From assembly GCF_056746865.1 (NCBI RefSeq), contig NZ_CM163382.1: 64,000 nt of DNA. The stretch is one strand, 5' to 3'. A program made the position numbers. Shown here piece by piece: positions 26,301-37,621 of this stretch. Every line of letters starts with the position of its first letter. The first letter of the stretch is position 1.

Positions 26301-29300
26301 AAAGGCATTATGCGTACAGCACAAGATCTGCCGCAGCCATTGTTATGGCCGCAGTTGCAGGTGAGCGAAGGTGAAAAATCATATACCTGTAATCAATTTT
26401 CGCTTTCATCAGAACGTCCGATGATTGGCTTTTGCCCGGGTGCGGAGTTTGGTCCGGCAAAACGCTGGCCACACTACCACTATGCGGAACTGGCAAAGCA
26501 GCTGATTGATGAAGGTTATCAGGTGGTTCTGTTTGGCTCGGCGAAAGATCATGAAGCGGGCAATGAGATTCTTGCCGCTTTGAATACCGAGCAGCAGGCA
26601 TGGTGCCGGAACCTGGCGGGGGAAACACAGCTTGATCAAGCGGTTATCCTGATTGCAGCCTGTAAAGCCATTGTCACTAACGATTCTGGCCTGATGCACG
26701 TTGCGGCGGCGCTCAATCGTCCGCTGGTTGCCCTGTATGGTCCGAGTAGCCCGGACTTCACACCGCCGCTATCCCATAAAGCACGCGTGATCCGCCTGAT
26801 TACCGGCTATCACAAAGTGCGTAAAGGTGACGCTGCGGAGGGTTATCACCAGAGCTTGATCGACATTACTCCCCAGCGCGCACTGGAAGAACTCAACGCG
26901 CTATTGTTACAAGAGGAAGCCTGACGGATGCGGGTTTTGATCGTTAAAACATCGTCGATGGGCGATGTTCTCCATACGTTGCCCGCACTCACTGATGCCC
27001 AGCAGGCAATCCCAGGGATTAAGTTTGACTGGGTGGTGGAAGAAGGGTTCGCACAAATTCCTTCCTGGCACGCCGCTGTTGAGCGAGTTATTCCTGTGGC
27101 AATACGTCGCTGGCGTAAAGCCTGGTTCTCGGCTCCCATAAAAGCTGAACGGAAAGCGTTTCGTGAAGCGCTACAAGCAGAGAACTATGACGCAGTTATC
27201 GACGCTCAGGGGCTGGTAAAAAGCGCGGCGCTGGTGACGCGTCTGGCACATGGCGTAAAGCATGGAATGGACTGGCAAACCGCTCGCGAACCACTGGCAA
27301 GCTTGTTTTACAATCGTAAGCATCATATTGCGAAACAGCAGCACGCCGTAGAACGCACCCGCGAACTGTTTGCCAAAAGTCTGGGCTATAGCAAACCGCA
27401 AACCCAGGGCGATTATGCTATTGCACAGCATTTCCTGACGAACCTGCCTACAGATGCTGGCGAATATGCCGTATTTCTTCATGCGACGACCCGTGATGAT
27501 AAACACTGGCCGGAAGAACACTGGCGAGATTTGATTGGTTTACTGGCAGATTCAGGAATACGGATTAAACTTCCGTGGGGCGCGCCGCATGAGGAAGAAC
27601 GGGCGAAACGACTGGCGGAAGGATTTGCTTATGTTGAAGTATTGCCGAAGATGAGTCTGGAAGGCGTTGCCCGCGTGCTGGCCGGGGCTAAATTTGTAGT
27701 GTCGGTGGATACGGGGTTAAGCCATTTAACGGCGGCACTGGATAGACCCAATATCACGGTTTATGGACCTACCGATCCGGGATTAATTGGCGGGTATGGG
27801 AAGAATCAAGTAGAGTGTCGTTCTACAAGTATGTCTCTTGCAGATTTGCCAGCTCAAACCGTTTTTCAAAATTTAAATCTTGAAATAATAACCAATAAGT
27901 TGACATCGGAGATAAGATGACCTCAACATTATTTTTCTCTCTCGAGAAAAAAAACTGGATAGCGTACTGGAACAGAGCTCTCGTATTCTTATTCATTACC
28001 ACCTATTTTTTGGGTGGGATTACAAGGTATAAACATCTTATTGTTATTCTTATGACAATAACGACAATCGTCTATCTCTGCAAACGGCCAAAACACTATC
28101 TTTCACTATTTAAAACATGTCTTTTTGGTAGTGTTGCCATATTAACTATTGCTGCATTGCTATCACTTCTTCAATCCCCAGATGCAGGTGCTAGCATGAA
28201 GGAAATTTTCAAAGCTATCATTGAAAATACTTTACTATGCACAATAGCAATACCGGTCATATTGAGAGACGAGAAAAGAGAAGATGTCGAAAAAATCGTT
28301 TTCTTCTCATTTATAAGTGCGTTGGGCTTACGTTGTTTTTCTGAATTGATTGCCTATTATAAGGACTATCAACAAGGGGTAATGCCATTTGCAGATTATA
28401 GACACCGTAGCATTTCTGACTCGATGGTCTTTTTATTTCCTGCATTGTTAAATCTCTGGCTTATCAAATCAGCAAAATACCGCATTTCTTTTGCGGTTCT
28501 AAGCGTTATTTTTATTTTTCTGATATTAGGAACTTTATCCAGAGGAGCCTGGCTTTCCGTGTTAGTCATTGGATTAATATGGATTCTGATGTTTAAACAA
28601 TGGAAGTTACTATTAGTAGGAGTAATGGTTTCCATCATTGCATTATCGGTTATTTTCACACATAAGGAGATGACCGCAAATCTAACGTATAAACTTCAAC
28701 AAACTAATAGTTCTTATCGCTATGCAAATGGTACTCAAGGCAGCGCACTCGATCTAATATTAGAAAATCCTGTTATTGGTTACGGTTACGGTAACGTTGC
28801 ATATAAAGATGTCTATAATAAACGTGTCGTTGATTATCCAGAATGGACCTTTAGACAATCGATAGGGCCACATAATTTTGCGCTATTCATCTGGTTTGGC
28901 ACTGGTTTATTAGGGCTGATAAGTCTTATGATGCTATACTGCGCAATATTGAAAGAGTGTATAAAAAATGGCGTCCAGAATAAAAACCGCTCACCATATA
29001 ATGCATATTATATAATCTTACTATCTTTTATAGGTTATTTTGTTATCCGTGGAAACGTAGAACAAATTGAACCAAATTTATTAGGCGTTTACGCCGGCTT
29101 ATTATTAGCAATGAAAAACAAGTAAAAAAAATAAAAAAGGCTGCATAATGCGGCCTTTTTATTTATTCAAACCAATTATGAATGACCTCTTCGAATCTTT
29201 GAGTTACGCCATCCCAACTGTAGTGATCAAACACAAAATCCTGACCTTGCTTTGCAACTGCTGTTAATTCAGGATTCGCTAACGTTTTTAAAATATCGCT

Positions 29301-35300: not shown

Positions 35301-37621
35301 GCCAATAAACAGCTGCGCATGATCGATTAACGCACCAAGTTCCGGGAAGGTCACCTTTCCGGCCAGCGCCGTTACTGGTGGCGTCTGGCATCCCTGCGCA
35401 ATTTCATTGACGCAGACCAGATCGTCTTTATCTGGGCCGGACGTCAGAACGACTTCATAACCACGAGCATGTAAGGCATCAATCACAGCGGAAAACTTGG
35501 CGTTGTCCCAGCATTTGAAGATTTGCCGCGCCGTAGGTTGGATAACCACATAATTTTGTCCAACACCAGCGTGATCAAGTTCGCGACGCATACGTTTCCA
35601 GCTTGCAGGCGGGTAACTCATGGTTGTCTGCTTCACCAACGATTCAAGCCCCAATGGCGACAGCACGGATAAGTTACTTTCCACCACATTTCCACCCTGC
35701 AACGGCACCAAATGAGTGAAACTATTACGCCAAAAAGCAGCCTGCCGATGATGATAATCCTGGGAAATTTTCACACGGGCATTTAATAAGCGCACCAGTA
35801 TAGCAACCATCCATTGATCGGTAAGATTAACGATAAGGTCATACTTATTGGCACGTAATACCTTGATGAGATGAAAAAAGTTGGCAATTTTTTCTGCGGC
35901 TTTTGCTTTTTTATTTTTTATGCCGTAGAGCGCGTTAATCTCTGGATTTTCAGACAGGATCGGGATGGTGTCCTGATAAAGCAGCACATCGATTTTTGCG
36001 TCAGGGTAATTTTTTTTCAGCGAACTAATGACGGGAGTAGTTAATAACATATCCCCATGAAAACGCATCTTAATGAGCAAAATTCTTCGAAATGGCTTAT
36101 CCACAAGTAACTCTTTTTGTTGAGATTATCCGATTAAGGTGAAGCAGAAAAAGCACGCTACCGCCCCAGGCTCAACAGCTACCTGAATACTGATACCGCA
36201 CTGATATTGACGCGCTAGTGTATCACTTCTTTCGCGGCAATCCGACCCGAATGATTTTTAAGCACATTGTTGATTTTCAATAAAGAAATCAATCAAATAA
36301 AATCATTAGCAACCATATTCTTTCACTGTTGCTCTGCGATTCCTTCCTGCACGTACTGCAGAAATCAATGAATCGCATAAAAATACAAAAAAAGTATAGA
36401 TGTTCAGCAAGAATTGGCGGGTAAATTGCTATTTAAGTCAAAAACGGGAAAAGTAATGGTAAAGCCACAGCTAAATACATAGAATCCCCAGCACATCCAT
36501 AAGTCAGCTATTTACTATGCTCGAATTGCTTTACACCGCCCTTCTCTACCTTATTCAGCCGCTGATCTGGATACGGCTCTGGGTGCGCGGACGTAAGGCT
36601 CCGGCCTATCGAAAACGCTGGGGTGAACGTTACGGTTTTTACCGCCATCCGCTAAAACCAGGCGGCATTATGCTGCACTCCGTCTCCGTCGGTGAAACTC
36701 TGGCGGCGATCCCGTTGGTGCGCGCACTGCGTCATCGTTATCCTGATTTACCGATTACCGTAACAACCATGACGCCAACCGGTTCGGAGCGCGTACAATC
36801 GGCTTTCGGGAAGGATGTTCAGCACGTTTATCTGCCGTATGACCTGCCCGATGCACTTAATCGTTTCCTGAATAAAGTCGACCCTAAACTAGTGTTGATT
36901 ATGGAAACCGAACTATGGCCTAACCTGATTGCGGCGCTACATAAACGTAAAATTCCGCTGGTGATCGCTAACGCGCGACTCTCTGCCCGCTCGGCCGCAG
37001 GTTATGCCAAACTGGGCAAATTCGTCCGTCGCTTGCTGCGTCGTATTACGCTGATTGCTGCGCAAAATGAAGAAGATGGTGCACGTTTTGTATCACTGGG
37101 CGCAAAAAATAATCAGGTGACCGTTACCGGTAGCCTGAAATTCGATATTTCTGTAACGCCGCAACTGGCTGCTAAAGCAGTGACGCTGCGCCGCCAGTGG
37201 GCACCACACCGCCCGGTATGGATTGCCACCAGCACTCACGAAGGCGAAGAGAGTGTGGTGATCGCCGCACATCAGGCATTGTTACAGCAATTCCCGAATT
37301 TATTGCTCATCCTGGTACCCCGTCATCCGGAACGCTTCCCGGATGCGATTAACCTTGTCCGCCAGGCTGGACTAAGCTATATCACACGCTCTTCAGGGGA
37401 AGTCCCCTCCACCAGCACGCAGGTTGTGGTTGGCGATACGATGGGCGAGCTGATGTTACTGTATGGCATTGCCGATCTCGCCTTTGTTGGCGGTTCACTG
37501 GTTGAACGTGGTGGGCATAATCCGCTGGAAGCTGCCGCACACGCTATTCCGGTATTGATGGGGCCGCATACTTTTAACTTTAAAGACATTTGCGCGCGGC
37601 TGGAGCAGGCAAGCGGGCTGA

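Follow-up and report, generated by a model that had tools for sequence, protein, structure and literature searches.

Gene content of the waa locus

The window, by which we mean the whole 64-kb stretch of DNA that was analyzed, carries a complete set of genes for the lipopolysaccharide (LPS) core. On the plus strand waaC is followed by waaL, and these converge with a minus-strand operon that reads waaQ-waaG-waaP-waaI-waaY-waaJ-waaD, which is the layout of the annotated O157:H7 locus. Open reading frames and domain families agree with the first-pass annotation, which had described a seven-gene operon of waaQ, waaG, waaP, a GT8, waaY, a second GT8 and a terminal GT4. The features are:

27809-33134, no strand: core-type-specific block (3' end of waaC, waaL, waaD, waaJ, waaY, waaI), from blastn and GC content
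27917-29125, plus: waaL, R3-type O-antigen ligase, 402 aa (Pfam Wzy_C; NCBIfam RfaL equivalog, 689 bits)
29134-29160, no strand: GC-rich palindromic hairpin with A/T-run flanks between convergent waaL and waaD (consensus match only)
29163-30305, minus: waaD, 380 aa, GT4, final gene of the operon (Pfam Glycos_transf_1)
30314-31327, minus: waaJ, 337 aa, GT8 (Pfam Glyco_transf_8 and 8C)
31352-32059, minus: waaY, heptose II kinase, 235 aa (Pfam WaaY, 311 bits; NCBIfam RfaY equivalog)
32085-33092, minus: waaI, 335 aa, GT8 (NCBIfam lipopolysaccharide 3-alpha-galactosyltransferase equivalog, 616 bits against a cut-off of 461)
33135-33932, minus: waaP, heptose I kinase, 265 aa, in the shared part of the locus (Pfam Kdo; NCBIfam RfaP equivalog)
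33925-35049, minus: waaG, glucosyltransferase I, 374 aa, GT4 (Pfam Glycos_transf_1)
35046-36104, minus: waaQ, heptosyltransferase III, 352 aa, GT9, first gene of the operon (NCBIfam RfaQ equivalog, 709 bits)
36154-36192, minus: JUMPstart element in the waaQ leader (Rfam RF01707, 55.2 bits, E 1e-10; gathering score 35)

The locus had earlier been given the limits 27917 and 36068. Its start stands, but the ATG at 36068 lies inside waaQ. The gene itself begins at a GTG at 36104, which is the start annotated in identical genomes and gives a full-length RfaQ match (profile positions 1-351 of 352 aligned). The JUMPstart element lies 50 nt upstream of this start and contains the ops octamer GGCGGTAG at 36158-36165; it is the predicted loading site for RfaH. 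At the other end of the locus, the start of waaL and the stop of waaC overlap by 4 bp. The hairpin in the waaL-waaD spacer is terminator-like, with 12 pairs (5 of them G-C) followed by a T run, and is probably a bidirectional intrinsic terminator. All eight proteins of the locus are equal in length to the annotated O157:H7 proteins, indicating that none is truncated.

Assignment of the core type

Core type was examined by in-silico PCR with a published primer scheme (PMC13293308, Table 2). The R3 primers match exactly, the forward primer at 30223-30242 (plus strand) in waaD and the reverse primer at 31221-31243 (minus strand) in waaJ, and yield a product spanning waaD-waaJ (30223-31243) that has zero mismatches and the published length of 1,021 bp. 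This was the only product; the R1, R2, R4 and K-12 typing primers have no site in the window even at 4 mismatches. All control genomes were typed correctly: O157:H7 as R3, MG1655 as K-12, B1S11 and MS21324 as R1, EE72d and strain 1190 as R4, and ECCTRSRTH03 as R2. Homology arms designed for the R3 prototype (PMC9927288) matched syntenic sites at 97-100% (blastn-short), with a total of 7 mismatches over about 460 nt.

Protein comparisons gave the same result. The R3 locus of O157:H7 (H2495, NZ_CP038342), a serotype whose R3 core is chemically established (10.1101/536201), has the same gene order and gene lengths, the same 1,021-bp R3 amplicon, and 98.3% DNA identity over 16 kb. The reference loci were themselves assigned to R3 from secondary citations and the typing primers. 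Identity to the O157:H7 proteins is 97.3% for WaaL, 98.9% for WaaD, 97.9% for WaaJ and WaaY, and 98.8% for WaaI. Against K-12, R1, R2 and R4, in contrast, the outer-core proteins and WaaL show 35-58% identity or no match (tblastn). WaaL is 51% identical to R2 WaaL and has no match in the K-12, R1 and R4 ligases, WaaD is 56.7% identical to R2 WaaK, WaaJ and WaaY reach 40-44% and 52-57% in the other types, and WaaI is 54-58% identical to their WaaO. When the GT8 paralogs of other core types were used as queries, they matched waaI and waaJ in the 64-kb window at 34-57%.

The view that the locus is of R1, R2, R4 or K-12 type, and resembles R3 in gene count alone, draws on the promoter-proximal genes. 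There, waaQ, waaG and waaP are near-identical to the R1 and R4 references: WaaP is 97-99% identical to the R1, R3 and R4 references and 84% to MG1655 and R2, and WaaG is 99.5-100% and 88-90% identical to the same two sets. Because of this near-identity, the first third of the operon does not separate the types, and the remainder of the locus speaks against any type other than R3. Queries with K-12 WaaS, WaaB, WaaZ and WaaU, R2 WaaZ and R4 WaaX found no homolog in the 64-kb window (tblastn, E <= 1e-3), so that the earlier statement that waaS-, waaB-, waaZ- and waaU-type genes are missing is upheld; R1 WaaV hit only waaH (20613-21029), in a weak GT2 match. Moreover, waaL lies on the strand opposite to that in R1 and R4. 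Primers, identities and absent marker genes taken together refute another core type, to which we give almost no probability, and no glycosyltransferase fell into R1, R4 or any other type on alignment.

The whole locus, at 95% identity or more and at full length, was found in 1,363 of 5,426 complete E. coli genomes (25.1%), compared to a published R3 frequency of 25.8% (PMC13293308). Two classes of waaD allele are present in these genomes: 191 genomes match the window at 99% or more and the other 1,172 at 95-99%, placing the window's allele in the rarer class (about 190 genomes at 99% or more). Compared with the O157-like allele that is common among R3 loci, WaaL has 11 residue changes. The existence of two allele classes, and the hybrid R2/K-12 loci documented in E. 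coli (PMC13293308), could be taken to mean that this is a hybrid or altered R3 variant in which the minority allele confers a core or a ligation specificity unlike that of canonical R3. However, nucleotide divergence from O157:H7 is the same in the block and in the conserved flanks, at 1.7% or about 9 differences per 500 bp, and only one indel separates the two, a 2-bp difference in a run of A in the waaL-waaD spacer. No segment has foreign similarity, the proteins are all full length, and several of the primer arms from the R3 prototype align to the window without a mismatch, making an altered specificity extremely improbable. A mosaic as the source of the 1.7% difference was likewise rejected, since the differences are evenly spread. 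As judged from these alignments, what separates the window from O157:H7 is ordinary lineage divergence.

Taken as a whole, the sequence evidence identifies segment 27917-36104 as an intact chromosomal R3-type waa locus of Escherichia coli, with a probability of about 0.97. The first-pass annotation, which had favored R3 over K-12, was right on this point, and the finding is an ordinary one, because the window holds an intact copy of a well-known cluster. The R3 locus, the functions of its genes and its frequency in the population have all been published, and no new biology is added here. Core type decides which phages, antibodies and protist predators recognise rough and semi-rough cells, and which residue accepts the O antigen. 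The R3 assignment is useful for strain annotation and typing. Among enterohaemorrhagic strains R3 is close to universal (97.9% of EHEC genomes; PMC13293308).

Core assembly and the neighboring yibB gene

The enzyme roles considered here are those given in PMC9927288, 10.64898/2026.07.23.740414 and 10.1101/536201. Transcription would begin upstream of waaQ, and RfaH, loading at ops, would escort RNA polymerase through this long and AT-rich operon as far as the hairpin that follows waaD. WaaG would then place GlcI on HepII, WaaP would phosphorylate HepI, WaaQ would add HepIII, and WaaY would phosphorylate HepII. WaaI is reported to add galactose (HexII) to GlcI (PMC9927288, PMC3184986), and would do so here. 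Going by its family, WaaJ would add glucose (HexIII, GlcII) to the galactose provided by WaaI, a role in keeping with its PGAP name, UDP-glucose--(galactosyl) LPS alpha1,2-glucosyltransferase. WaaD would contribute the terminal glucose, and WaaL would join the O antigen to the finished core.

The role of WaaD is described differently in different sources. PMC9927288 and 10.64898/2026.07.23.740414, citing Kaniuk 2004, make it the glucosyltransferase for the terminal GlcIII. PGAP and NCBIfam label the protein "lipopolysaccharide N-acetylglucosaminyltransferase", a label that comes from a subfamily model common to the WaaK proteins of Salmonella and R2, and one Shigella paper depicts WaaD as a GlcNAc transferase, contrary to the papers that cite the biochemical work. 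According to a preprint (10.1101/536201), which reports a Hex4-Hep3-HexNAc2-Kdo core for EDL933 at m/z 1868, the mature R3 core has two GlcNAc residues, neither of which is encoded by the waaQ operon. The same preprint, citing Kaniuk 2004, attributes the GlcNAc on HepIII to the plasmid-borne WabB and leaves the enzyme for the GlcNAc on galactose unidentified. The 64-kb window is chromosomal and wabB is absent from it; to complete the R3 structure, wabB and the second GlcNAc transferase would have to be supplied from elsewhere in the genome.

Three kilobases from the R3 block, at 23775-24632 on the minus strand, is yibB (htrL), an uncharacterised gene for a GT-A-fold protein that lies on an AT-rich indel of 1.28 kb. 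It apparently accompanies every E. coli R3 locus, since the count of 1,363 genomes was the same with or without requiring yibB, and it is also found with the R3 locus of an Escherichia species and with each of the four R3-like loci detected in other genera. A high-confidence model of YibB has a GT-A fold nearest to retaining transferases (GT6, GT8); a search of the YibB profile against the sequences of solved structures gave nothing meaningful. With the galactose-linked GlcNAc lacking an assigned enzyme in that one preprint, there is some ground for the idea that YibB/HtrL is the transferase for the alpha-linked GlcNAc on the galactose of the R3 outer core. We regard this idea, drawn from the fold model and the association, as unlikely. 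The gene also adjoins E. coli R1 loci (140 genomes) and K-12-type loci (the K-12-type ligase waaL occurs in 1,032 genomes in total). In Citrobacter amalonaticus its neighbor is an R4-like locus, in a metagenomic genome it is a different outer-core set, and in some cases the gene is found outside waa loci altogether. Its presence beside other core types makes a functional tie to R3 weak. If YibB were the GlcNAc transferase, it would be cryptic in the non-R3 backgrounds; physical linkage explains the association equally well. Functional coupling of yibB to R3 was for these reasons demoted from a main result, and the association is offered as a cheap, testable candidate for the gap in R3 core assembly.

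The AT-rich block and its relation to known core loci

The first-pass annotation had also described the outer-core genes and waaL as markedly AT-rich, consistent with a horizontal origin. The composition itself is confirmed. GC content is 35.2% in waaL, 37.2% in waaD, 30.4% in waaJ, 30.9% in waaY and 32.1% in waaI, compared to 47-54% in waaP, waaG, waaQ, waaC, waaF and waaA. The block at 27809-33134 averages 33% GC, versus 51% elsewhere in the window, and no other 5.3-kb segment of the 64 kb is as low in GC as the one beginning near 27801 (33.3% versus a median of 49.8%). These limits coincide with those of the type-specific sequence: in blastn alignments, high identity to the K-12, R1, R2 and R4 references is lost at 27808/27811 and regained at 33135 (R1, R4) or 33239 (K-12, R2), the R2 reference being alignable further into the block, to about 28069.

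The sharp boundaries and the 33% versus 51% GC contrast are what would be expected if the block had been imported into this strain recently from a low-GC donor, and the order waaI-waaJ-waaD with facing waaL is found in Citrobacter, Enterobacter, Cedecea and Atlantibacter as well. Nevertheless, a GC content this low (33-35%) is shared by the type-specific block of every one of the five core types, and it is thus the mark of an old exchangeable cassette rather than of a recent import. The block has also diverged from O157:H7 by 1.7%, equal to the value for the flanking housekeeping genes, and is present in a quarter of E. coli genomes. The R3-like cassettes of the other genera are 64-76% identical in protein sequence, whereas the flanking hldD, waaF and waaA are 85-96% identical; the cassettes being more distant than their flanks, no recent donor is in sight. 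Recent import therefore appears very unlikely, and horizontal origin holds in a qualified sense: composition and distribution point to an old, exchangeable allelic cassette. The block is one of five such cassettes maintained in E. coli, which are exchanged by homologous recombination in the conserved flanks.

Comparison with the other E. coli core types locates what is particular to R3. In R1 and R4 loci, waaQ, waaG and waaP are 98-100% identical to those of the window, and the right-hand recombination junction falls exactly at the waaP stop codon (33135). Beyond it, their outer core is encoded by waaO-waaT-waaY-waaW together with waaV (GT2) or waaX (GT25), with waaL on the operon strand, and identity between their GT8 proteins and those of the window is no more than 35-55%. 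The R2 and Salmonella-type loci, which read waaQGP-(wabA)-B-O-J-Y-Z-K, have a convergent waaL that lies on the waaC strand, as it does in the window. Identity to R2 is 51% for WaaL, 57% for the terminal GT4 (WaaK), 57% for WaaY and 58% for the first GT8, but R2 has three genes more (the GT8 gene wabA, waaB and waaZ) and its waaQGP is a separate lineage, 72-88% identical to that of the window. R2 WaaK is a GlcNAc transferase, while R3 WaaD is reported to add glucose.

Far closer to the window than any other E. coli core type are the R3-like loci of Citrobacter freundii M-21, Enterobacter sp. Ag1, Cedecea davisae and Atlantibacter hermannii. All four have the order waaQ-G-P-I-J-D, a convergent waaL, and yibB upstream of hldD. 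Identity to the window's proteins is 71-76% for their WaaI, WaaJ and WaaD and 64-72% for their WaaL. They differ in having no waaY, with only about 100 bp between the two GT8 genes, and in a milder depression of GC content (33-48%).

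Gene content and core type of the waa locus

The features of the locus are as follows; the operon ORFs were assigned with Pfam and NCBIfam and are given in transcription order.

24936-27920, plus strand: hldD-waaF-waaC, left flank of the core locus
27917-29125, plus strand: waaL, start overlapping the waaC stop; Wzy_C ligase domain
36104 to 29163, minus strand: seven overlapping or tightly packed ORFs
first, minus strand: waaQ, GT9 heptosyltransferase (RfaQ equivalog, 709 bits)
second, minus strand: waaG, GT4
third, minus strand: waaP, WaaP kinase
fourth, minus strand: waaI, GT8 that passes the "3-alpha-galactosyltransferase" equivalog cut-off
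fifth, minus strand: waaY, WaaY kinase
sixth, minus strand: waaJ, second GT8
seventh, 29163-30305, minus strand: waaD, GT4
36517 onward, plus strand: waaA-coaD, right flank of the core locus

Neighboring genes from waaQ to waaD overlap or are separated by 8-42 bp. This gene content matches exactly that listed in the first-pass annotation, which had proposed an R3-type locus at 27917-36068. The sole coordinate correction concerns its end: 36068 is an internal ATG of waaQ, which starts with a GTG at 36104.

Several lines of evidence assign the locus to R3 rather than another core type. Nine primers described in 2025 type 99% of 4,549 complete E. coli genomes (PMC13293308). When these were applied to the window in silico, allowing up to four mismatches, R3-F (30223-30242) and R3-R (31221-31243, opposite strand) matched with 0 mismatches each and delimited a product of the published size, 1,021 bp, while the other seven primers had no site in the window even at four mismatches. 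As a control, reference loci from complete genomes were typed with the same primers, which called O157:H7 H2495 as R3, MG1655 as K-12, B1S11 and MS21324 as R1, EE72d and strain 1190 as R4, and ECCTRSRTH03 as R2. The gene contents of these references fit textbook layouts (a GT2 waaV in R1, a GT25 waaX in R4, ten-gene operons in K-12 and R2).

Protein comparisons led to the same assignment. Identity to O157:H7 is 97.3% for WaaL, 98.9% for WaaD, 97.9% for WaaJ, 97.9% for WaaY and 98.8% for WaaI, versus 35-58% at best for the same five proteins against every non-R3 type; the ligases of K-12, R1 and R4 show no detectable similarity to WaaL. Alignment places the glycosyltransferases in neither R1, R4 nor any other non-R3 type. 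When proteins specific to each of the other four types were searched against the entire 64 kb, WaaS, WaaB, WaaZ, WaaU and WaaX were found nowhere, and the sole match to WaaV was a weak GT2 similarity within waaH. The R3-prototype primer arms (PMC9927288) align where the gene boundaries should lie, with identities of 97-100%. The locus is an ordinary R3 core cluster that the literature has described in full, and it is of little interest beyond strain typing.

Expression signals and predicted core assembly

Two elements frame the operon:

36154-36192, minus strand: JUMPstart element with ops octamer (Rfam, 55 bits), 50 nt upstream of waaQ
37-bp waaL-waaD gap: 12-pair hairpin flanked by A/T runs, filling the space between the convergent genes

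Six copies of the ops octamer GGCGGTAG lie in the window (8562, 36158, 41232, 43500, 49807 and 55514), versus 1.3 expected from shuffles, and only the one at 36158 falls in a JUMPstart element. From what is known of these families, RfaH would load at ops, allowing a single transcript to span all seven genes, and the hairpin would terminate both transcription units. From roles in the literature, WaaG, WaaP, WaaQ and WaaY would assemble and phosphorylate the heptose region, and WaaL would ligate O antigen. According to PMC9927288 and 10.64898/2026.07.23.740414, WaaI adds Gal, WaaJ adds Glc onto that Gal, and WaaD adds the terminal GlcIII.

WaaD is annotated as an N-acetylglucosaminyltransferase by PGAP and NCBIfam, a label that stems from an NCBIfam subfamily model covering WaaK as well; papers citing the biochemistry give glucose. 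One Shigella paper also draws WaaD as an N-acetylglucosaminyltransferase. PMC13293308 calls its R3 "waaD" primer target ADP-L-glycero-D-mannoheptose 6-epimerase, a confusion with rfaD/hldD, which was also formerly named waaD.

According to 10.1101/536201, two GlcNAc residues of the mature R3 core of O157:H7 go beyond what the operon explains; the one on HepIII is attributed there to plasmid-encoded WabB, and the enzyme for the one on the outer-core Gal is given as unknown. YibB, encoded about 3 kb from the R3 block, was considered for the missing activity:

23604-24887: yibB/htrL indel, 1.28 kb, AT-rich (37% GC), between kbl and hldD
23775-24632, minus strand: yibB/htrL CDS, uncharacterised protein of the HtrL_YibB family

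AlphaFold predicts a GT-A fold for it (pLDDT 90.9), with retaining GT6 and GT8 enzymes as best matches, and distant members are named "WlaTC/HtrL family glycosyltransferase" by NCBI. The window, O157:H7 and MG1655 have the indel and the R1, R2 and R4 references lack it; yibB also lies at the same site in an Escherichia sp. R3 locus and in 4/4 R3-like loci of other genera. Composite queries of complete E. coli genomes gave these counts:

yibB with R3 waaL: 1,363 genomes, equal to R3 alone (1,363/1,363)
yibB overall: 1,958 genomes
yibB with R1 ligase: 140 genomes
K-12-type ligase, total: 1,032 genomes

About 595 genomes of non-R3 types thus carry yibB, the 140 with the R1 ligase among them. Within E. 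coli the gene also sits beside R1 loci and the MG1655 K-12 locus; at that same site in Citrobacter amalonaticus a YibB 81% identical adjoins an R4-like locus, a 66% homolog likewise adjoins yet another outer-core set, and still more remote homologs occur away from waa loci altogether. Because yibB keeps such varied company, YibB is an improbable candidate for the missing R3 GlcNAc transferase. R3 appears always to occur with yibB, yet the reverse does not hold, and physical linkage over 3 kb explains the pattern.

Population frequency and other features of the window

Of 5,426 complete E. coli genomes, 1,363 (25.1%) contain the whole 8.2-kb segment at 95% identity or higher with a coverage of 80% or more, close to the published R3 frequency of 25.8% (PMC13293308). 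The window locus, 100% identical to that of strain CFSAN061770, belongs to a minority allele class: waaD is matched at 99% or higher in about 190 genomes and at 98% in about 1,170. Relative to O157:H7, the 16 kb compared contain 282 differences, distributed evenly across the type-specific block and its housekeeping flanks, with a single indel of 2 bp between waaL and waaD. All eight proteins equal their O157:H7 counterparts in length. The locus is therefore intact, and its divergence from O157:H7 is of the kind ordinarily seen between lineages.

Elsewhere, pyrE and rph are separated by an insertion of 705 bp (43786-44490) with an IS200/IS605-family Y1 transposase ORF at 44398-43889; CFSAN061770 lacks it and, apart from that, matches window 1-43785 at 99.995% identity. 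Coordinate transfer from that near-identical strain places an IS3-family element (IS1397) between cysE and trmL (about 11257-12605). A YadA-family trimeric autotransporter adhesin gene (about 1393-6625, internal repeats at 2786-3967 of 80-89%) is covered in the annotation of the near-identical CFSAN061770 by two CDS that overlap, one for an ESPR-domain protein and one for the adhesin, which suggests a frameshift or split gene. Right after yicC, the window departs from the CFSAN061770 backbone into a phage-like island (about 46230-64000):

46334-47677, plus strand: integrase ORF, heading the island

Island genes annotated in related genomes include an antirepressor, a DUF5906/primase-like protein, and DNA-ejection and lytic transglycosylase functions, with a reverse transcriptase family protein in one; in other strains the site holds dinD or different inserts.

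Composition and relatives of the R3 cassette

Similarity to the K-12, R1 and R4 references stops at 27808-27811, within the waaC 3' end, and to the R2 reference at about 28069; it is regained at the stop codon of waaP (33135) for R1/R4 and at 33239 for K-12/R2. The type-specific block so bounded has 33.3% GC, versus 50.7% in the remainder of the window, and no stretch of equal length in the 64 kb is lower in GC. The AT-richness reported for the outer-core genes and waaL is real and sharply bounded. The matching blocks of K-12, R1, R2 and R4 have 33-35% GC, so low GC is not peculiar to R3.

Beyond the block, waaQ, waaG and waaP (33135-36104) fall into two deep lineages, one comprising the window and the R1 and R4 references (97-100% alike), the other MG1655 and the R2 reference, with only 72-90% protein identity to the window. 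In the K-12-type strain S10EC, waaQGP are R1/R3/R4-like and the junction falls within waaP, at about 33239; this shows mosaic recombination.

The horizontal origin read from this composition holds as long-term exchange and not as recent import into this strain, of which the comparisons made gave no sign. One scan with WaaL of a one-genome-per-species collection matched an Escherichia sp. (96%) and Citrobacter freundii M-21 and Enterobacter sp. Ag1 (64-65%); YibB homologs led to two further loci of this kind, in Cedecea davisae and Atlantibacter hermannii. The picture, drawn from sequence comparison, is of an old polymorphism of exchangeable cassettes shared among Enterobacteriaceae.

All four non-Escherichia loci share the order waaQ-G-P-I-J-D with a convergent waaL. 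Their proteins are 64-76% identical to the window cassette overall, and WaaI, WaaJ and WaaD are 71-76% identical, with the other E. coli types much farther away; the adjacent hldD, waaF and waaA (85-96%) are better kept than the cassette. Because waaY is absent from all four, the comparison suggests that E. coli R3 is an R3-like cassette with waaY placed between its two GT8 genes.
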